Source: Candidatus Nomurabacteria bacterium
GTDB lineage: Bacteria > Patescibacteriota > Minisyncoccia > Phycocordibacterales > SBAW01
Reading direction: 5' to 3'
Assembly: GCA_943356495.1 (NCBI GenBank)
Contig: CALRFF010000001.1
Coordinates: forward strand, 92,864-156,863
DNA: 64,000 nucleotides
The translations under genes were made by a program, and so were the position numbers. How positions within the stretch are numbered: position 1 is the stretch's first letter; each line of letters begins with the position of its first letter. Below the pieces are notes generated by a model, which was not told the DNA's origin, did not search any database, and saw only the letters and a list, made by a program, of their open reading frames with translations. Below, piece after piece: positions 5,274-58,796 of the stretch.

Positions 5274-5277
5274 CAAG

Positions 5278-5348
5278 TGGACCTGGCGAGAATCGAACTC
5301 GCGCCTCTGCAATGCGAATGCAGCGTTTTACCACTTAACTACAGGCCC
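5278..5348 (-). tRNA. tRNA-Ala (anticodon CGC), atypical acceptor stem
   Basis: Cloverleaf with T-loop TTCGATT. Anticodon loop TTCGCAT gives CGC. G3.U70 is present, but position 1/72 is a G/A mismatch. No encoded CCA. Confidence 0.5.
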
Positions 5349-5379
5349 TGTTTCGCCTAAGCATAAGCAAAGACGAAGT

Positions 5380-5453
5380 TGGTCGGGATGCAGAGAATCG
5401 AACTCTGGTTTCACGCACCCGAAGCGTGCATAATACCACTATACGACATCCCG
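5380..5453 (-). tRNA. tRNA-Pro (anticodon CGG)
   Basis: Acceptor CGGGATG/CATCCCG, anticodon loop TTCGGGT, T-arm CAGAG-TTCGATT-CTCTG, encoded CCA. Confidence 0.8.
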
Positions 5454-5493
5454 ATTGACGAACGCACTAAAATATATCAGCAAAAAGCTTTTT

Positions 5494-5568
5494 GTGCACC
5501 TTGAGAGGCTCGAACTCCCGACCTCGCCAGTGTGAGTGGCGCGCTCTAACCAACTGAGCTAAAGGTGC
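5494..5568 (-). tRNA. tRNA-Val (anticodon CAC)
   Basis: GCACCTT/AAGGTGC acceptor, D-loop AGCTCAGTTGGTTAGAGC, anticodon loop CTCACAC. Confidence 0.8.
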
Positions 5569-5572
5569 TTTG

Positions 5573-5645
5573 TGGACCCAACCGGGATCGAACCGGTCAC
5601 CTCCTCATTGCAAATGAGGCGCTCTACCAAATGAGCTATGGGCCC
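5573..5645 (-). tRNA. tRNA-Ala (anticodon TGC)
   Basis: GGGCCCA/TGGGTCC acceptor with G3.U70. Anticodon loop TTTGCAA. T-arm ACCGG-TTCGATC-CCGGT. Confidence 0.85.
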
Positions 5646-51429: not shown

Positions 51430-51504
51430 GGCCACGTGGCGAAGAAGCAACGCGTCGGTCTGCAAAACCGATATGCGAGGGTGCGAATCCCTCCGTGGCC
51501 TCCA
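51430..51504 (+). tRNA. tRNA-Cys (anticodon GCA), non-canonical T-loop
   Basis: Acceptor GGCCACG/CGTGGCC, anticodon loop CTGCAAA, encoded CCA. T-loop TGCGAAT has G at position 55. D-stem is only 3 bp. Confidence 0.6.
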
Positions 51505-51594
51505 GCCGGGGTGATGGAATTGGTAGACATACGGGACTTAAAATCCCGAGAGGTCCTGAAAACCCTCATGAGAGTTCGAGTCTCTCCTCCGGCA
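51505..51594 (+). tRNA. tRNA-Leu (anticodon TAA), long variable arm
   Basis: Begins immediately after the Cys CCA. Acceptor GCCGGGG/CTCCGGC, anticodon loop CTTAAAA, T-arm GAGAG-TTCGAGT-CTCTC. Confidence 0.8.
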
Positions 51595-51600
51595 CATAGT

Positions 51601-52476
51601 ATGGATTTTTTATACGGCCAGATTACTGACAACCCGCCGCCGCTCGTGGTGGCGCCGGAAAGTTGGCCCGAGTACGGACGATTGGCCGACCCGCTCGGTT
51701 TTTGTGCGCGCGAGGAGGTAGGCACGCACCCGCGCGGCGTGCGCTGGAGCTTTTGGCCGCTTGCGTTCGAGGAGTATGTAAGCGACACGGAACCGAACCT
51801 TGCCGACTCCGCGCAGGGCGAGCTCGCCCGCAACCGCGTGTTTATTTGGAAGCGTATTACCCGCGCCGCTATACCAGAAGGTTGGCGCGAAGTTTCAAAA
51901 AAACCGTGGCGCATCGACGGCTATCACGACCTTGGTACCGGCGGCGACTACACTGCAGCGTGGCACAAAAACGCGCGGCGCGAAGCGCGCTTGTGGCGCG
52001 AGGAGCACGCCGCGCGGTACGACATCGTTGAAATTTCTCTCGAGGAGTTTATCGGCGCGTACCGCAAAAGCATGACGGTTAAAAAAGCCGGCGCAGACTT
52101 GCTGTCGGTGCTCGTACGCATGCACGCGCTCCCCGCCCAAAAGCACATTGCGTTGTGGGGTGTGCGCAACAAGCAGACGGGCAGGATTATCGCGGGTACC
52201 GCTACGATTACCTCGCCCACGCATAAAAGCTCGGTGCGCTATTGTCCGTTTATGCTCCCCGAGGCGCGGCACTGCTACGCATCGATAGGGCTCGTTGACC
52301 ATTGGTTTGCGCATGCGCAAAAAAACGGCACACAGTATTTGCTGTTTACTTGTTTTTGGCAGCCGGGCGACCCCAAGGGGTGGCAGGGCCCCGCGGAGTT
52401 TAAGTCGCACTTCGGGTTGCAGTATGTCGCCTACCCGCCGGAGCTTACGCGGTTTGTAAGAGGAAAAATCTTTTAG
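51601..52476 (+). CDS. hypothetical protein, possible FemAB-family (aminoacyl-tRNA-dependent aminoacyltransferase)/GNAT-fold protein, high-GC
   Basis: 291 aa. C-terminus GWQGPAEFKSHFGLQYVAYPPE loosely resembles the FemAB C-terminal FKKGFGG...Y motif. Start trimmed to MDFLYG (the ORF-track 5' extension covers the two tRNAs). Confidence 0.35.
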   Translation: MDFLYGQITDNPPPLVVAPESWPEYGRLADPLGFCAREEVGTHPRGVRWSFWPLAFEEYVSDTEPNLADSAQGELARNRVFIWKRITRAAIPEGWREVSKKPWRIDGYHDLGTGGDYTAAWHKNARREARLWREEHAARYDIVEISLEEFIGAYRKSMTVKKAGADLLSVLVRMHALPAQKHIALWGVRNKQTGRIIAGTATITSPTHKSSVRYCPFMLPEARHCYASIGLVDHWFAHAQKNGTQYLLFTCFWQPGDPKGWQGPAEFKSHFGLQYVAYPPELTRFVRGKIF

Positions 52477-52549
52477 TGCGCCCGCCTGGATTCGAACCAG
52501 GGACCATCTCCTTAAGAGGGAGTTGCTCTACCAACTGAGCTACGGGCGC
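52477..52549 (-). tRNA. tRNA-Lys (anticodon CTT)
   Basis: Acceptor GCGCCCG/CGGGCGC, D-loop AGCTCAGTTGGTAGAGC, anticodon loop CTCTTAA, T-arm CCTGG-TTCGAAT-CCAGG. Abuts the stop of the preceding gene. Confidence 0.8.
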
Positions 52550-52604
52550 AAATTACAAAAGGATAATAGCATTAATTATTGTTTCATCATAGAATTTTGA
52601 TATC

Positions 52605-52688
52605 GCTGGGGTGGCGGAATTGGTATACGCATCAGCCTTAGGAGCTGACGGGAGCAATCCCTTGGAGGTTCGAGTCCTCTCCCCAGCA
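52605..52688 (+). tRNA. tRNA-Leu (anticodon TAG), long variable arm
   Basis: Acceptor GCTGGGG/CCCCAGC, anticodon loop CTTAGGA, T-arm GAGG-TTCGAGT-CCTC. Confidence 0.85.
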
Positions 52689-52720
52689 CAAAAAACCTTT
52701 ATATTGCAAGGTATTTTACC

Positions 52721-52750
52721 TTGACTTTTAGCTCAAATATGATATAATAG
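52721..52750 (+). promoter_or_regulatory. near-consensus sigma70 promoter with extended -10 (TTGACT-N16-TGaTATAAT) driving the high-GC island
   Basis: CCTTGACTTTTAGCTCAAATATGATATAATAGACGG, followed about 60 nt later by SD GGAGGG and the 52817 ORF. Confidence 0.6.
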
Positions 52751-52816: not shown

Positions 52817-53017
52817 ATGGAGGGAACAATGGCGAAAAGTTCGAAGAAGGCCGGCAACTCGTTGTACGCTCGCTGCATGAAGGCGCTCGCGGGTCTTACG
52901 ACCCAAGTACGCCAACTGCGTAAGGAGAAATCCGAGCGCGACATGCTCGACGCACAGCTCGAAGCCGAACTCATCCCCATCGTCGAGGACGCCGAAAAGG
53001 CCCTCGCAGGAAACTAA
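52817..53017 (+). CDS. small coiled-coil hypothetical protein (66 aa)
   Basis: SD GGAGGG. Lys-rich N-terminus then an amphipathic helix (LTTQVRQLRKEKSERDMLDAQLEAELIPIVEDAEKALAG). Confidence 0.5.
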   Translation: MEGTMAKSSKKAGNSLYARCMKALAGLTTQVRQLRKEKSERDMLDAQLEAELIPIVEDAEKALAGN

Positions 53018-53030
53018 GAAAGGAACTGCA

Positions 53031-54380
53031 ATGCATCCTCTGGTACGGCGCCTTATGGCGCAAGTGGTGGAGCTCACTCGGTATCGCCGAGCGAATCCAC
53101 CTCCTCCCCCGCCCCCACCCGGGGCGGGCGGAGCAGCCACGATACCGCCGTCACCTGTGCCGCGCGGTCGCACCACTGTCTTTGCTATCGTGGTTGCCTT
53201 GTTTGTCGCCGGCGCCATCTTGCTGATGGTGCCGTTGGCTATCGTAATGAACTTGCTCGCGATCATAGCGGCAGCCCTCGTTGCGATCTATCTTGTCTTC
53301 TACGGTCTGGCGCTCAACCAGATCCTCTTCACCACGATGAGGGAAGGTACGGGCCGCTTCGTAATGGACGGCGGACCGGACGGAGCGTTCAACCATTTGC
53401 TCTGGGCCTGGAAAGGTCACTACAGCAACGACCCGCGGATGCCGTGGTTTGACCCGCATGCACCCGCGTGGGAGATCCTCGATCTGAAGCTGACCACCAA
53501 CCTCTGGCTGCATCAACATCCGAAGGTAATGCCCTCGAACTATCCGCCCGGTTCTGTCTGGCGGCTGTTCGAGAAAGTCGGCCTGTACTGGTTTGGATTT
53601 CCCCCGCGGGCAATCCACCGCTACATGTTCGAGTGGACCGAGGAGAAAATCGACGCCGAGGGCAAGCACATGCCGTGGCACCGCAAGGAGCCGACGGACT
53701 TCATCTTCCTGATGGACAACGTCTATTGGATGAAGCTTGAAGGCGCCGAGACAAACGGCAACATCCCGCTCGACGTCGACTACCTGCTTACGGTGGGCGT
53801 CAACAACCCCATCAAGGCGCGTTTCGGCCAGACCAACTGGCTCACGAGCCTTGGCGCGGACTCCAACAACGCCGCAAAGCGTTGGATAGGTGACAACACC
53901 TTTCAGGCAATCGCCAAAGAGCAAGGCACTACCGGCACGACCAGTGGTTTTGTCGTAGAAATCGCCGAGCTCAATGACAACCTGCCGACCCACCACGCCA
54001 CTATCGGCGCGACGGAACTTATCGGCGCGACGGTAAAAGGTGCTTCGCTCCAGAAGATCGACCCGGCAGACTCTGCAAACCGGGAAGAGATTCTGAAGGC
54101 GACCACCGCTCCGGTGATTGCGGAGCTGAACGCGCAGGCGACACGAACTACCGCCGACGCAGAAGCCTACCGCATCAGAACTGTCTATGGCGAATCGGAA
54201 GGCAACACCGACCGTATGCGCCAAAAGCAATGGGAGGCCATGCGCGACGCAAAAGGCACGGTCTTCTGGATTCCGGAAGTCATTGCCAACTTTGCGCAGC
54301 GCTTTGGCGCACCTCAACCGCAGGGGCCTCAACAGCCTCCGCAAAATCCTCAACCGGGGGCGCCGCCAGCGGGCCCCTAA
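53031..54380 (+). CDS. membrane protein with polyproline N-terminus, two TM helices and a divergent SPFH/band-7-like domain with a Trp-rich insertion; Gln/Pro-rich C-terminal tail
   Basis: PPPPPPPP run. TM helices (VFAIVVALFVAGAILLMVPLAIV...LLAIIAAALVAIYLVFYGL). REGTGRFVM resembles the SPFH start motif. C-terminal region ATRTTADAEAYRIRTVYGESEGN...KGTVFWIP resembles the SPFH C-terminal helix/tail. 449 aa. Confidence 0.45.
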   Translation: MHPLVRRLMAQVVELTRYRRANPPPPPPPPGAGGAATIPPSPVPRGRTTVFAIVVALFVAGAILLMVPLAIVMNLLAIIAAALVAIYLVFYGLALNQILFTTMREGTGRFVMDGGPDGAFNHLLWAWKGHYSNDPRMPWFDPHAPAWEILDLKLTTNLWLHQHPKVMPSNYPPGSVWRLFEKVGLYWFGFPPRAIHRYMFEWTEEKIDAEGKHMPWHRKEPTDFIFLMDNVYWMKLEGAETNGNIPLDVDYLLTVGVNNPIKARFGQTNWLTSLGADSNNAAKRWIGDNTFQAIAKEQGTTGTTSGFVVEIAELNDNLPTHHATIGATELIGATVKGASLQKIDPADSANREEILKATTAPVIAELNAQATRTTADAEAYRIRTVYGESEGNTDRMRQKQWEAMRDAKGTVFWIPEVIANFAQRFGAPQPQGPQQPPQNPQPGAPPAGP

Positions 54381-54390
54381 GGAGTAAGCC

Positions 54391-55173
54391 ATGACTTCTA
54401 CGGTGTTACTGGTCCTACTGCTCGTTATTGCGGTAGGCGGCCTCAGTGTTCAGTGGTACTTCGCGCGAGCGGGTGCCACACGCACGAGGCCGCTCGGCGG
54501 ATTTCTTACCGTCGAGCAAATCAAAGGGATTGCCATCAGCGGCGTCGTCACGGTCGTCGTGCTGCTGATGTTTAACGCCTTCCTGCCAAACGTCTCCGAC
54601 GCTTACGCGGCGCGCGGCGGGCCGCAGTTCCTGCTCATCGTCGGTGTGGTGTTTATCTGTCTGGCTTACTTTCTTGCGCCCAACCCGGGCATGCGAAAGT
54701 GGCTGGTCAGAAGCCTCGCCGTCCTGATGGGAATCGTGGTCCTTTCCTCGCTCGTGCCGGCCGTCTTTGTCGGGAAGCCCCTGACCGAGGCGGAAGTCCG
54801 GCTCGAGCAGGAAAAGAAGGCGCTCGACGCAAAGTACAAGCTCGCGTCGAGTGCCGCGACTCTCTCGCTTGCCGATGCGCAAGACTGCACCGGCAGGGCC
54901 AGCCCCACGATTACGGTCGGCACAGAGCCGCTCGAGGTAAACAAGGGCGGCCAGTGCAGGGTGGTGCTGCAGTATCCGGACGACGTCGTCGCCTGCTATC
55001 TCGTTAAGAGCGAGGGCGACACGGAGTGGCAGGGCCCTGTCGGGGCCACCTGTCCGGACCGGAAAAATATTACTCCGGTCGACGTCGAGTACATCAAGGC
55101 GGTAACGCCCTTCAAGGCGCGGGTGGTGCTTTACCCGCGCGCACCGACCCAGTGGGTCCGGTGGAAGAGCTAA
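54391..55173 (+). CDS. 4-TM membrane protein with C-terminal Cys-containing soluble domain (possible NfeD-like partner of the SPFH-like protein)
   Basis: Strong SD AAGGAG. Four hydrophobic helices. C-terminal beta-rich region with 4 Cys (QDCTGRASP...GGQCRVVLQYPDDVVACYLV...GATCPDRK). Confidence 0.5.
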   Translation: MTSTVLLVLLLVIAVGGLSVQWYFARAGATRTRPLGGFLTVEQIKGIAISGVVTVVVLLMFNAFLPNVSDAYAARGGPQFLLIVGVVFICLAYFLAPNPGMRKWLVRSLAVLMGIVVLSSLVPAVFVGKPLTEAEVRLEQEKKALDAKYKLASSAATLSLADAQDCTGRASPTITVGTEPLEVNKGGQCRVVLQYPDDVVACYLVKSEGDTEWQGPVGATCPDRKNITPVDVEYIKAVTPFKARVVLYPRAPTQWVRWKS

Positions 55174-55192: not shown

Positions 55193-55287
55193 GCGGCTCC
55201 CTACCAAGGGAGCCGCTTTTCTTTTTACATATAAAATTTAGAGACAAAAAAAACCGCCACCCTTTTGGGGTTGGCGGGGTTTTTTAG
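55193..55287. terminator. two tandem hairpin terminators between convergent genes, the second bidirectional
   Basis: GCGGCTCCCTACCAAGGGAGCCGC + TTTTCTTTTT, then AAAAAAAACCGCCACCCTTTTGGGGTTGGCGGGGTTTTTT. Confidence 0.6.
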
Positions 55288-55300
55288 TCGCTCGGGCTTG

Positions 55301-55585
55301 TCAGTACGCCGGCTGGTACGCAACTGCCGGTTGATACGCGACTGCCGGTTGGTAGGCGACCGCGGGTTGATAACCGCGCGGCGGTGTCACCGAACCGAGA
55401 CTGCTCGACATGGGCGTCGACATATGCCCCGAGCCCAAGTTGCTCGAGACCGCTCCGGGGCCGCCCACAACACCGAGATTGCTCGAGACATAGCCGGGGT
55501 GCGGCACCGAGCCGATCTCTTCGGCAGACAGCAGCGTCGTACCGGCGAAACCGAGCAGAACTGTAGCGATTGCAAGGTACTTCAT
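55301..55585 (-). CDS. small secreted low-complexity peptide with C-terminal (YQPAVA)4 tandem repeats
   Basis: Signal peptide MKYLAIATVLLGFAGTTLLSA. SSNLG repeats. C-terminus YQPAVAYQPAVAYQPAVAYQPAY encoded by 18-nt tandem DNA repeats (about 55305-55375). SD AAGGGAGGA. Strong promoter upstream. Confidence 0.6.
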   Translation of the reverse strand: MKYLAIATVLLGFAGTTLLSAEEIGSVPHPGYVSSNLGVVGGPGAVSSNLGSGHMSTPMSSSLGSVTPPRGYQPAVAYQPAVAYQPAVAYQPAY

Positions 55586-55617
55586 CGAAGTCCTCCCTTA
55601 GGTTGATCGATACCTCT

Positions 55618-55647
55618 ATTATAGCACAAGAGATGTAGTTTTGTCAA
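55618..55647 (-). promoter_or_regulatory. consensus sigma70 promoter with extended -10 (TTGACA-N18-TGcTATAAT) for the repeat-peptide gene
   Basis: Minus strand reads GTAGTTGACAAAACTACATCTCTTGTGCTATAATAGAGG. Confidence 0.6.
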
Positions 55648-55671
55648 CTACCTCTCTGTGACCTAAAAAAC

Positions 55672-55944
55672 TTAAAAACCGTAGGTCGAAACCGGCGTAC
55701 CCACCATAGTGCCTATCAGTTTAACAATCGCCCAAGAAGACGCCATGATAAACATACCCACCAAGCCGTAAAGCATGTGGCGCTTGCCGTCCTCTTTTTT
55801 GCCCGAGCCTTCGTTGGACAAGCCAAACATAAACTCGACTATGCCAAAGACAAACATAAGCGTGCCTACGGCAAACAATAGTCCAAGTATGGGGTTAAGG
55901 ATGTACTGCACCATCCTCCCCGCAAGCGCAGTAAGCTCCTGCAT
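55672..55944 (-). CDS. T4SS-pilin-like (VirB2/TrbC-like) small membrane protein
   Basis: 90 aa, two TM helices separated by a charged loop (FGLSNEGSGKKEDGKRHMLYGLVGMFIMA). Confidence 0.55.
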   Translation of the reverse strand: MQELTALAGRMVQYILNPILGLLFAVGTLMFVFGIVEFMFGLSNEGSGKKEDGKRHMLYGLVGMFIMASSWAIVKLIGTMVGTPVSTYGF

Positions 55945-55953
55945 AGGCGCTTA

Positions 55954-56298
55954 TCAGCGCGGCACCGGTACGCCCGGGCTTTGTACCGGAGCGTTTGCAG
56001 GCACTCCAAGCGCGCTTTGCGCCAAGGAGATAATGCCCCAGACAGACACCATAACAAACAGCGAGACGAGGCCCGCTATCATGATGTTCTTGCCTTCAGC
56101 GTGACCTTTGCCCGAAGAGCGGATGTATTTGATAAGACCGAAAAAGAATACGATAAGCGCTACCGTAATAAGTATCGGGATAAGCATGGCCACCAAGCGG
56201 CCGATGGCGCCCATGAGCGTCATGAGCGGCTGGAGCGTTTGAGCCGAGGCTACAAGCGGGAGCGCGAACAGGGCGACGGTAAACGTGAGTTTTTTCAT
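55954..56298 (-). CDS. T4SS-pilin-like small protein with signal peptide (copy 1 of a tandem duplicate)
   Basis: MKKLTFTVALFALPLVASAQT signal peptide, then two-helix pilin-like core (GLIKYIRSSGKGHAEGKNIMIAGLVSLFVMVSVWGII). Confidence 0.6.
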   Translation of the reverse strand: MKKLTFTVALFALPLVASAQTLQPLMTLMGAIGRLVAMLIPILITVALIVFFFGLIKYIRSSGKGHAEGKNIMIAGLVSLFVMVSVWGIISLAQSALGVPANAPVQSPGVPVPR

Positions 56299-56318
56299 AT
56301 AAAATTAAATAATACTGA

Positions 56319-56720
56319 CTAATTAATACAACCCCTATGGCAACGGGCTACGTGCGGTGGGGATCGGATAGGCGCCACCGTAGTAGTTAGGTACGCCCGG
56401 GCTTTGTACCGGAGCGTTTGCAGGCACTCCAAGCGCGCTTTGCGCCAAGGAGATAATGCCCCACACCACACCATAACAAACAGCGAGACGAGGCCCGCTA
56501 TCATGATGTTTTTACCTTCGGCATGGCCCTTACCGGAAGAGCGGATGTATTTGATAAGACCGAAAAAGAATACGATAAGCGCTACCGTAATAAGTATCGG
56601 GATAAGCATCGCTACCAAACGACCAATGGCGTCCATAAGCGTCATGAGCGGTTGCAACGTCTGGGCCGAGGCGATAAGCGGGAGCGCGAACAGTGCGGCA
56701 GTAAACGTGAGTTTTTTCAT
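56319..56720 (-). pseudogene. tandem duplicate of the 55954..56298 pilin-like gene carrying a 1-nt deletion frameshift (or sequencing error)
   Basis: First about 84 codons are near-identical to copy 1. The DNA differs at about 56446-56455 (CACCACACC vs GACAGACACC), shifting the frame into an unrelated Arg/Cys-rich tail. Confidence 0.5.
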
Positions 56721-56803
56721 GAAGTTGATATAAAACGGGTGCGCCCTAACTATAGCAGAGAACTGGGGGTGTCAAAATAACCCTGTGGACAGGGCCGTGG
56801 TGT

Positions 56804-57046
56804 CTAATAGAGATTAAGCGCTTCGCGCATAGTGGCCAGTATCCCCCACACGGATACGAGGACAAACATCGCTACAAGGCCCCAGACAATGAGCTCCTTG
56901 CCCTCGGCATGGCCGTGGCTGTCGGAAGACTCGTAGATAAACCGCACCAACCCTATAAAAAAGAATACCAGTGCAATAGCCACCAGTAGCGGAATAATCG
57001 TGTTGATAAGGCCGATAAACTTGCCTACTAAGGCGGCGAAGCTCAT
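56804..57046 (-). CDS. T4SS-pilin-like small membrane protein
   Basis: 80 aa. Two helices with charged loop (ESSDSHGHAEGKELIVWGLVAMFVLVSVWGI). Confidence 0.55.
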   Translation of the reverse strand: MSFAALVGKFIGLINTIIPLLVAIALVFFFIGLVRFIYESSDSHGHAEGKELIVWGLVAMFVLVSVWGILATMREALNLY

Positions 57047-57047
57047 G

Positions 57048-57491
57048 CTAGCAGTTATTGAGCCCCGGCGTGTTTATGTTGAGATCTTTTATCGTGCTTG
57101 CTATCACCTGCCCCAACAGCCATGCGCCCAAAAATATGGCAATGCCCACAACCGTGTAAAAGAGATTGAGTTTTGCCTTTTCTAACGCGGCGGGGTTGCC
57201 GCGCGCCATCACCAAGCGAAAGCCCGCGTACATAACAAAAAACGTGGCTATCGGTATCCCGAAGAGTATAAGTACGTTAAGGATAGCTTTAATGAGCTGG
57301 CAAAAACTCCCTGTTTTGCCCAGTGGGTTTTGCAGGGCAAAAATAGAGTTGCCGAAGGAGTCTTGGCTTTTTTGGACACCGTAGGCGTCTCCGGAGTTCG
57401 GCCCAAAGACGTCGGTAGCGGCCTGTACCGCAAAGGGAGCCATGGTAAGTAACACCAGAGAAAGTGCGGCAAATAAGAAAATCTTTTTCAT
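57048..57491 (-). CDS. T4SS-pilin-like protein with signal peptide and N-terminal extension
   Basis: Signal peptide MKKIFLFAALSLVLLTMAPFAVQA. Cys, then two TM helices (ILFGIPIATFFVMYAGF ... VVGIAIFLGAWLLGQVI). Confidence 0.55.
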   Translation of the reverse strand: MKKIFLFAALSLVLLTMAPFAVQAATDVFGPNSGDAYGVQKSQDSFGNSIFALQNPLGKTGSFCQLIKAILNVLILFGIPIATFFVMYAGFRLVMARGNPAALEKAKLNLFYTVVGIAIFLGAWLLGQVIASTIKDLNINTPGLNNC

Positions 57492-57494
57492 ATA

Positions 57495-58796
57495 CTACTG
57501 AAAGAAAGCGGCAAACTCCTGCGAGGCATCGTTGACTGCTTGTGACGGGTCGGTCTTGCCGGTTGTTACTGATTCTATCATTGCCTTAAAGATAGTGTCG
57601 GTAGACTCGGTGTTAGGGTCAAACCACCCGCGGGAGATAAGCGCCGATTGCGAAAACACCTGCGCCGCGGCATTGGCCGATGTATCTACCGCTACATCGC
57701 GGCGCACTGCAGGCAGGCCCGTGGCGGCCACCACCTGTTGGACGCCCGCTTGGCTTACCAGTTTTTGGGCAACCACCAACGCCCCGCCGGGGTTAGCCGC
57801 CGTGCGCGACACCCCCAAACCGGTAATGCTGCCGTAGGTCAGCCGCGGTCCGTTGCCCTGCAGTTGCGGCAACAGCGCAACACTAAAGTGCAGGTTGGGG
57901 TTGCGCTTAGTCAGTACCGGCAGCTCGCTGGCAAAACCAAAGTACACGGCCAAATCGCCCGCCACAAACGCTTCGGTCGAGTTGTGCAGGGAGCGGTTCC
58001 AGGTGTAGGAGCTTTTAGAGGGGTTGGCAAACTCGGTATAAAAACGCAGTGCCGACTCGGCGGGGTTGGTGGCAACGCCCGGCGCCGCGGTGCCGAACAC
58101 GCTGGCAAGGTAGCCTTGCTCGTTGCGGCTTACTATCGGGTCCCCCGCCTGCATAAACAGCGCAGACAATATCGCCTTGGCATGCGACACGTTGCCCCAC
58201 GCGCCGAGCGCCACCGCGCTGCGGCGCACGTTCTGCGAAGTATCTATAGAGGTTATTTTTTGCGCCAAGGTTAAGAGCTCGTTCCAGTACACGGGTGCCT
58301 GCGCCACCCCTGCGCCCGCCAACAAATCGCGGTTCCAGTACATGACCAACGGGTCGATCATAAACGGCAACGCCCAGCTGCCTTGGCTGTTTAAAAAGAT
58401 GTTCGCCTCATCGACAAACGAGTTGGTAAAGGTCGACTGTGACACCGAACTGTAGGGTATATTGAGCACTTTGTCGGCAAACGCGCCTATCGACTCTTGG
58501 GTCAGCATAAACAGGTCGGGCCCGCGACCCGCGGCAATGGCATTGATAAGTATCTGCTGGTAGGTGGCCTTGTCGGCCTCAAGATACGTAACGTCCTGAA
58601 AACTCTTATCAGTGGCGCGCAAGTTTTGCAGTACCATGCTCATTTGCTGCTCGTCTGCGGTGCCCCAAATGGTCACCTGCCCGACCGACGTGCTGCCGGT
58701 TACGCCTCCAAAGGCCGCAAACACGCCCACGCCGATAATAGTAAAAACCACAAATGCGGTGGTAACTATTATTTGAAAGGTGCTTATCGACTTCAT
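57495..58796 (-). CDS. extracellular solute-binding protein (ABC transporter SBP, family 1-like)
   Basis: N-terminal TM/signal anchor then a periplasmic-binding-protein-like domain. 433 aa. Confidence 0.75.
   Translation of the reverse strand: MKSISTFQIIVTTAFVVFTIIGVGVFAAFGGVTGSTSVGQVTIWGTADEQQMSMVLQNLRATDKSFQDVTYLEADKATYQQILINAIAAGRGPDLFMLTQESIGAFADKVLNIPYSSVSQSTFTNSFVDEANIFLNSQGSWALPFMIDPLVMYWNRDLLAGAGVAQAPVYWNELLTLAQKITSIDTSQNVRRSAVALGAWGNVSHAKAILSALFMQAGDPIVSRNEQGYLASVFGTAAPGVATNPAESALRFYTEFANPSKSSYTWNRSLHNSTEAFVAGDLAVYFGFASELPVLTKRNPNLHFSVALLPQLQGNGPRLTYGSITGLGVSRTAANPGGALVVAQKLVSQAGVQQVVAATGLPAVRRDVAVDTSANAAAQVFSQSALISRGWFDPNTESTDTIFKAMIESVTTGKTDPSQAVNDASQEFAAFFQ

Follow-up and report, generated by a model that had tools for sequence, protein, structure and literature searches.

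In the window analysed here, 64,000 nucleotides of contig CALRFF010000001.1 from a Candidatus Nomurabacteria bacterium (assembly GCA_943356495.1), a minus-strand gene encodes a pre-peptide of 94 amino acids (aa) with a predicted Sec signal peptide, a Ser-rich middle region and a C-terminal array of YQPAVA hexapeptides. It belongs to a genuine, unannotated, lineage-restricted family of small repeat peptides with predicted export, without a match to any family described so far; its gene comes last in an array with five VirB2-like pilin genes and has a promoter of its own. We regard it as very probable that the gene encodes a real peptide, predicted to be both expressed and exported. As to its function, we favour, with a probability of about 0.5, a peptide that is exported in large amounts to the envelope or surface and is connected with the pilin array; export, cleavage, abundance, location and a structural or adhesive role are what we infer from sequence. 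All features are listed with their positions in Table 1.

The product has the sequence MKYLAIATVLLGFAGTTLLSAEEIGSVPHPGYVSSNLGVVGGPGAVSSNLGSGHMSTPMSSSLGSVTPPRGYQPAVAYQPAVAYQPAVAYQPAY. The initial annotation of this region, made by a model from the letters and a list of open reading frames (ORFs), had described a 94-aa ORF; this ORF was confirmed, the interval given for it (55296-55648) corresponding to the ORF together with its promoter, and the annotation lacked the strand, the truncation of the last repeat unit and the linkage to a conserved VirB2-like pilin array. An assembly artefact, raised at the time as a possible objection, is excluded, as the same gene is present in independent assemblies: identical copies were found on at least eight contigs (ENA ERZ27280310 and ERZ27280224, Logan ERR5863117 and ERR5863202, among several assemblies), and the window is identical to a 260-kb ENA contig across 18.7 kb. 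Lack of conservation in relatives, the second objection, does not apply either, with the ORF kept in 11 distinct family members. In Nei-Gojobori counts, the proportion of nonsynonymous differences (pN, 0.22-0.45) was below that of synonymous differences (pS, 0.53-0.88) in 36 of 36 ortholog pairs, and the ratio of the corresponding substitution rates (dN/dS) was about 0.13-0.5 for the pairs where it was computable. The peptide gene is thus a fast-evolving yet constrained coding gene under purifying selection. A 113-aa ORF on the plus strand (55265-55606) was considered as the true gene and rejected as a shadow ORF, since the pattern of synonymous sites fits the minus-strand frame alone. Genetic code 25 was rejected, since table 11 leaves the long ORFs nearby uninterrupted and the ortholog at locus L004 ends in TAA.

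The repeat array carries a record of this selection at codon level. In place of the four perfect YQPAVA units initially reported, the actual C-terminus consists of (YQPAVA)3 followed by YQPAY, corresponding to about 3.8 units. At the DNA level, the reported tandem repeat does have a period of 18 nucleotides (nt), with imperfect copies: 3.6 copies with 82% matches at 55308-55372 were obtained with Tandem Repeats Finder. Between these copies, all six third-codon positions differ (TAT/TAC, CAA/CAG, CCC/CCG, GCG/GCA, GTC/GTT and GCC/GCG), and none of the 12 first and second positions; the chance that six random variable sites among 18 would all fall on third positions is 1/C(18,6) = 1/18564, or about 5e-5. 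Because the copies vary only at synonymous sites, the peptide sequence in the minus-strand frame is under selection, and because they vary at all third-codon positions, the repeat is old, being the product of neither recent slippage nor assembly. The scrambled synonymous sites also argue against frequent slippage and would predict a stable repeat number, where variation between strains had originally been expected; same-species assemblies, 99.9-100% identical, have equal repeat counts. In the middle region, two of the modules conform to the SSNLG motif described initially, and the third reads SSSLG. A His/Met motif in the window peptide, GHMSTPM, was considered for metal binding and discarded, as it is not conserved by the family members.

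A search for similar Tyr-Gln-Pro repeat peptides, as initially proposed, recovered 11 distinct full-length members and one partial member, all of them in metagenomes or metagenome-assembled genomes (MAGs). They were collected by searching at the protein level, by running a profile against 1.84 billion representative proteins, by scanning GTDB genomes (with a 3-sequence alignment) and JGI metagenomes, and by retrieving loci through the adjacent pilin gene. The profile search returned 21 hits, of which P0001, P0002, P0003 and P0010 form the family; the remaining hits (among P0004-P0021, P0010 excepted) were rejected as unrelated low-complexity repeat proteins, as were the metagenome hits L015 and L016, long unrelated proteins which have one or two YQPA units in common with the family. 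The exact window protein was not found in the clustered protein collection. One member is encoded in the MAG 'Patescibacteria group bacterium H43-bin025_1' from Hainich groundwater.

The family members share one layout. A signal peptide of 18-23 residues, with an MK(K) start and a hydrophobic core (h-region) of about 12-15 residues, is followed by a mature N-terminus of the form [ED]-x-[LI]-[GE]-[PS], by one to three copies of a Ser-rich module [ST]-S-x-[LIV]-G-S (present in every member), by a junction P-x-A-[RH]-G and finally by the hexapeptides, whose profile over 85 units is Y (60%), Q (86%), P (86%), A (85%), V (36%) or R (29%), A (63%). The number of units depends on the species and ranges from 3.8 in the window to 16.8 in L010; in the central units of the long members Tyr is lost and Q-P-A is kept. 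Position 5 can be V, R, T or Q within one protein. Among the first four positions of the unit, Tyr shows the weakest conservation, so that Tyr cross-linking, one of the roles first suggested for the repeats, is not favoured as their key property. Product lengths range from 91 to 152 aa. In 6 of the 11 members the mature part is 72-74 aa long despite unit numbers from 3.8 to 8.8, as if the total length were constrained. The mature peptides contain a single Lys in about 918 residues (11 members), Cys is absent in 9 of the 11, and the mature isoelectric point (pI) ranges from 5.0 (P0010) to 10.6, most members being basic (8.4-10.6). The mature parts have a grand average of hydropathy (GRAVY) of -0.07 to -0.71, and the C-termini (AYQPAY, AYQPAW, AYQPAR, PYQPAQ) are without a hydrophobic tail.

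In Pfam, NCBIfam and PDB sequences, neither the window peptide nor any of its relatives had a match above a curated cutoff. Sub-threshold hits to the PtrA N-terminal domain, EntC, AM470, FLVCR2, Pericardin and P30 were attributed to low-complexity sequence or to the signal peptide, and full-text literature searches for YQPAVA, YQPARA and AYQPA returned nothing relevant. One further sequence with such a repeat was noted in a MAG labelled as Chlamydiae (L006, contig CAWCVY010000016.1, 6001-6432, plus strand), a 143-aa signal-peptide protein with AYQPVVPYQPAAVYQPVVPYQPAVAYQPAVAYQPYV. Its hhalign probability is 97%, over 42 repeat columns only, and the repeat in this unrelated exported protein is probably convergent. 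Judged by eye, one ORF beside this gene looks like LpxK, which would suggest a diderm.

The signal peptide recognised in the initial annotation has the features expected for Sec export and cleavage by signal peptidase I (SPase I), and these are kept in the 11 family members by inspection: a basic n-region, an h-region with a GRAVY of 1.8-2.8, and small residues at positions -3 and -1. In 10 of the 11 members the cleavage motif is A-[HQ]-A followed by E, D or Q; in the window it is LSA followed by EE. The mature window peptide is predicted to begin at Glu22 (EEIGSVPHPG...) and to span 55304-55522 (minus strand), giving 73 aa and about 7.3 kDa, with a pI of 6.0, a single Arg and neither Lys nor Cys. 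From an acidic tip at its N-terminus it would continue through three Ser-rich SSxLGS modules into the C-terminal (Y-Q-P-A-V-A)n array; the C-terminal tryptic peptide of the protein is GYQPAVAYQPAVAYQPAVAYQPAY. No lipobox Cys, LPXTG motif or second hydrophobic segment was found. An AlphaFold2 model built with the 3-sequence alignment has a mean predicted local distance difference test score (pLDDT) of 55 and a predicted template modelling score (pTM) of 0.16, with the signal peptide as the only helix (residues 3-14), so that the mature peptide is modelled as disordered or extended.

The alternative to cleavage is that the N-terminal segment stays on the protein as a signal anchor, holding an extended, membrane-tethered 'bristle' that passes through the wall. 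This would account for a peptide without any other anchor, for the non-canonical LSA of the window where AxA would be expected, and for the nearly equal post-signal length in more than half of the members, which resembles a fixed-length spacer. It is difficult to reconcile with the textbook A-[HQ]-A motif and the following E, D or Q in all members but one, placed directly after the h-region, and with an h-region of a length usual in signal peptides that are cleaved but small for a stable membrane-spanning anchor. We therefore consider an uncleaved anchor improbable.

With respect to expression, the promoter described initially as a consensus promoter matches the sigma-70 hexamers at 12 of 12 positions and has an extended -10 TG in addition. 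When both strands of the 64-kb window were scanned, no other match at 12/12 was obtained, and three at 11/12. All 10 orthologous loci examined retain it at 10/12 or better together with the extended -10 TG, although their proteins have diverged by about 50%. The Shine-Dalgarno sequence, also called strong at the outset, proved to be GGAGG at a distance of 6 nt from the ATG, and GGAGG is kept in 8 of 10 orthologous loci. The terminator hairpin folds at -23.2 kcal/mol (z = -3.96; none of 200 shuffled sequences folds as well), and a hairpin with a T-run follows every ortholog. With T-runs on both sides it is plausibly bidirectional, as had been proposed. The convergent gene also has its own terminator, which is likewise kept downstream of the orthologs. 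No terminator was found between the 90-aa pilin gene and the peptide promoter, and read-through may thus add transcription. The conserved near-consensus promoter fits high expression, and we take the peptide gene to be a self-contained unit with its own promoter and terminator, which is probably very highly expressed.

The peptide gene lies downstream, on the same strand, of five pilin-like genes, encoding 147, 80, 133 (frameshifted), 114 and 90 aa. The gene order of this array is also found in L007, L008, L010 and L019, and the wider order of pilin array, peptide and a convergent operon of 175-262-aa and 392-463-aa genes is kept in L005, L007, L008, L010 and L019; the short contigs L004, L021 and L022 have the same order as far as it is readable. 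All recovered homologs of the 90-aa pilin (73-81% identity, from 5.8 billion proteins) have a gene of the peptide family directly downstream. Arrays of VirB2-like genes, with 2-11 genes each and in some cases interrupted by non-pilin genes, are widespread in bacteria of the candidate phyla radiation (CPR), which are episymbionts of other microbes; in Ca. Southlakia epibionticum the pilin array has been termed 'essential', and a transposon-sequencing screen found the type IV secretion system (T4SS) cluster of this organism to be essential for epibiotic growth (bioRxiv 10.1101/2025.01.22.634366).

On this basis, the 94-aa product would be exported via the Sec pathway and cleaved by SPase I after Ala21, and a disordered or extended peptide of 73 aa and about 7.3 kDa would be released. 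This mature peptide would accumulate outside the membrane as an abundant component of the envelope or surface, and would act together with the VirB2-like pilins encoded next to it. It could, for instance, coat, glue or space the surface structures by which these episymbionts presumably contact their hosts. The 'abundant cell-surface or matrix peptide' of the initial annotation is therefore plausible as judged from the sequence. A more far-reaching version, in which the peptide is the major extracellular partner of the pilin array, an extremely abundant fibre coat, glue or length-setting spacer that mediates or tunes the attachment of the episymbiont to its host cell, is in our view unlikely; the basis for a length-setting spacer is the mature length held by the six members of 72-74 aa, in which Ser-rich modules are traded against hexapeptide units.

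Several observations weigh against an abundant surface component linked to the pilins. No anchor or wall-binding module is recognisable in the peptide, so that its retention at the surface is an assumption, and no VirB4, VirD4, T4SS ATPase or other T4SS machinery was found in the 64-kb window. The synteny, confined to a narrow clade, may reflect shared ancestry and not a functional link to the pilins. Neither the charge of the mature peptide (pI 5.0-10.6) nor the repeat number (3.8-16.8 units) is conserved.

A different function for the repeats would be that of a Sec-exported signalling pro-peptide, cut by extracellular proteases into several YQPAVA hexapeptides. Precedents are Bacillus Phr and the phage arbitrium peptide AimP, from which a C-terminal signal of 5-6 residues is obtained, and the precursors of yeast alpha-factor, which give several copies in tandem. 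Such a role would suit a pre-protein as small as this one, with its signal peptide and its identical hexapeptides at the very C-terminus; the host is likely monoderm, and a gene resembling those of solute-binding proteins (SBPs) heads the cluster. Arguing to the contrary, no RRNPP-type receptor or regulator and no peptidase is recorded within +/-10 kb, there is no conserved processing site between the units, and the units are degenerate within one protein (V, R, T or Q at position 5, Tyr lost centrally) and number up to 17; moreover, YQPAVA is common to many species without diversification into specificity types, and the Ser-rich modules are conserved too, which a mere spacer would not need. 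We give this possibility little credence.

A secreted effector or antimicrobial, directed against the host bacterium or competitors in the manner of proline-rich, Arg-containing antimicrobial peptides, has equally to be weighed against the composition of the family. The product is small, Pro-rich and predicted to be secreted, most members are basic, with Arg at position 5 of the unit, and CPR bacteria live as episymbionts of other microbes. The cationic character is, however, not conserved, the window peptide having one Arg and a pI of 6.0 and P0010 a pI of 5.0; an amphipathic or hydrophobic segment is lacking, and no immunity or export genes are adjacent. Such an activity is accordingly very doubtful. 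That the locus is not a gene at all, with a chance ORF over a tandem DNA repeat, an assembly artefact or a non-coding RNA in a GC-rich, repetitive region with long plus-strand shadow ORFs such as the 113-aa one, is refuted by the restriction of inter-copy variation to third-codon positions of the minus-strand frame, by a pN below pS for every ortholog pair, by the retention of reading frame, signal peptide, Shine-Dalgarno sequence and promoter in 11 distinct orthologs, and by a sequence unchanged across independent assemblies.

Assignment to a known class of protein was attempted for several candidates and rejected. A lipoprotein processed by signal peptidase II would require a Cys, which the window protein and the mature part of 9 of the 11 members do not have, and a sortase substrate an LPXTG-like motif or hydrophobic tail, of which the C-termini have neither. 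The peptide is not itself a pilin (VirB2/TrbC/T4SS_pilin; PF04956, PF18895), as none of the 11 members has a Pfam match and their mature GRAVY is negative throughout, while the neighbours do match. For an RRNPP pro-peptide (Phr, AimP, PapR), a receptor-like gene is missing from those recorded within +/-10 kb; for the precursor of a ribosomally synthesised and post-translationally modified peptide, a Sec-type signal peptide is present, and no radical SAM, YcaO, P450 or peptidase/transporter families are recorded within the same distance. A left-handed beta-helix hexapeptide protein (PF00132) was rejected because there is no Pfam match, Pro occupies the position of a small residue and the AlphaFold model is without strands, and a cytadhesin P30/P32 (PF07271) because only 1 of the 11 members matches (E = 0.002), and not the window protein.

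The closest described context is that of the VirB2-like arrays of Patescibacteria, of which named examples with PF18895 are the 'Sec secreted array' of Ca. Nanosynbacter lyticus TM7x and the pilin array of Ca. Southlakia epibionticum ML1 (bioRxiv 10.1101/2025.01.22.634366). Here a small peptide with Sec targeting closes a five-gene array and has been conserved along with it; it differs from the pilins in having no PF18895 or TrbC match and none of the two hydrophobic helices of VirB2, in being of low complexity and disordered after the signal peptide, and in having its own, far stronger promoter.

Further parallels are of a more limited kind. One is with the proline-rich repeat regions found in surface proteins of Gram-positive bacteria. 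In pneumococcal PspA and PspC, such a region with PAPAP and QPAP motifs forms a segment of large multidomain proteins with choline-binding or LPXTG anchors. The peptides of the present family resemble it in their short Pro/Ala/Gln-rich tandem units, their predicted export, an expected extended or unfolded state and a repeat number that varies between lineages, but the repeat peptide is here the whole mature protein, without an anchor, and no sequence homology was detected. The Mycoplasma proteins P30 and P32 similarly combine a C-terminal Pro-rich hexapeptide array with an exported protein in a reduced-genome bacterium attached to other cells; P30, in contrast, is a transmembrane protein of an attachment organelle, and the resemblance is compositional only. 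With the RRNPP pro-peptides (Phr, AimP) the family shares the form of a small signal-peptide pre-protein with a conserved short unit at the C-terminus, but differs in the lack of an adjacent receptor gene, in a degenerate unit repeated 4-17 times, in a length of 91-152 aa and in the conservation of the middle region. Finally, E. coli Lpp (Braun lipoprotein), a lipoprotein forming a coiled-coil trimer, is encoded by a monocistronic gene with an exceptionally strong promoter and a strong terminator. The likeness to Lpp concerns gene architecture only, a very small (here predicted) envelope protein between a strong promoter and a terminator, as the window peptide has no lipobox, heptad pattern or predicted structure.

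Table 1. Features of the peptide locus and its surroundings, with positions as numbered in the window
Feature	Position	Strand	Basis
Coding sequence of the 94-aa pre-peptide	55301-55585	minus	ATG to TGA (stop 55303-55301); ORF listing and codon-level analysis
Predicted Sec signal peptide, aa 1-21 (MK / YLAIATVLLGFAG / TTLLSA), with predicted SPase I cleavage between LSA and EE	55523-55585	minus	n/h/c organisation by inspection
Ser/Gly-rich middle with three SS[NS]LG modules (aa 34-38, 47-51, 60-64)	55394-55486	minus	Sequence reading; motif recurs in family
Hexapeptide array YQPAVA x3 + YQPAY (aa 72-94)	55304-55372	minus	Imperfect 18-nt repeats; Tandem Repeats Finder and codon table
Sigma-70-type promoter: -35 TTGACA (55647-55642), 18-nt spacer, extended -10 TGcTATAAT (hexamer 55623-55618)	55618-55647	minus	12/12 match with TG
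Shine-Dalgarno sequence AAGGGAGGA (GGAGG 55596-55592)	55591-55599	minus	6 nt between GGAGG and ATG
Intrinsic terminator of the peptide gene: hairpin 55254-55277, T8 minus (55253-55246), T6 plus (55280-55285)	55246-55285	either strand	RNA fold
Terminator of the convergent 260-aa gene (54391-55173, plus)	55193-55226	plus	10-bp stem with 8 GC pairs, then TTTTCTTTTT
90-aa VirB2-like pilin (PF18895 T4SS_pilin), upstream neighbour	55672-55944	minus	Pfam E = 2.9e-09, above cutoff
Rest of pilin-like array: 114 aa (55954-56298), frameshifted paralog (56319-56720), 80 aa (56804-57046), 147 aa (57048-57491)	55954-57491	minus	PF18895 hits near or at cutoff
433-aa SBP-like gene, head of cluster	57495-58796	minus	Weak SBP_bac_6 match
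Convergent operon: 66 aa (52817-53017), 449 aa (53031-54380), 260 aa (54391-55173)	52817-55173	plus	ORF listing
Promoter of the convergent operon, 11/12 with extended -10 TG	52721-52748	plus	Window promoter scan

Beyond the peptide gene, the following was noted for the array and its surroundings. The SBP-like 433-aa gene, whose ortholog in L019 carries SBP_bac_1 and SBP_bac_8, is translationally coupled to the 147-aa and 80-aa pilin-like genes (gaps of 3 nt and 1 nt), and no ABC permease or ATPase adjoins it, an unusual partnership. The genes at 56319-56720 and 55954-56298 (both on the minus strand) are tandem paralogs of the 114-aa pilin-like gene with 91.6% DNA identity. A 1-nt deletion (GTGTCTGTCTGG to GTGT-GGTGTGG) shifts the frame of the upstream paralog, which when restored would end in ...GVPNYYGGAYPIPTARSPLP, a Tyr/Gly/Pro-rich tail as in the longer paralogs of L007 and L008; the frameshifted copy may reflect pseudogenisation, an error in assembly or a site of slippage. 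In replicate assemblies of Hainich well H43 (L012 1-1528 and L013 1670-3197), the sequences are 99.9% identical, but the tandem 115/136-aa pilin-like genes seem to be arranged differently or to vary in copy number, so that the pilin array may be more variable than the peptide gene.

The convergent operon, described as one of membrane proteins, is kept beside the peptide gene in all loci; in L005, a Band_7/SPFH domain is present in the 392-aa protein that corresponds to the 449-aa one. Recorded within +/-10 kb of the peptide gene are pilin-like and SBP-like proteins, a methyltransferase, NUDIX, GyrA, RbfA, IF-2, ClpB and unannotated membrane proteins, and the rest of the window is occupied by housekeeping genes (UvrABC, Tgt, Ddl, TopA, RelA/SpoT, SerRS, ClpB, IF-2, GyrA). 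It contains 12 tRNAs and no rRNA; tRNA clusters are located at 5277-5645 (minus strand; Ala-Pro-Val-Ala) and at 51430-52689 (Cys-Leu / Lys / Leu), the latter just upstream of the convergent operon.

Mostly uncultured, Patescibacteria form a sizeable part of bacterial diversity and grow in attachment to other microbes. If the peptide is a lineage-specific low-complexity protein without a phenotype, it would be one more orphan gene, and the present evidence allows no more; the kind of protein is itself familiar, and its interest would be modest unless the peptide proves to be a major surface component. As a conserved peptide with predicted export, located at the end of a pilin array and equipped with the best promoter in 64 kb, it gives metaproteome studies a specific target, cheap to look for, as a candidate abundant surface protein, and may serve as an antigen or labelling handle for Patescibacteria cells.

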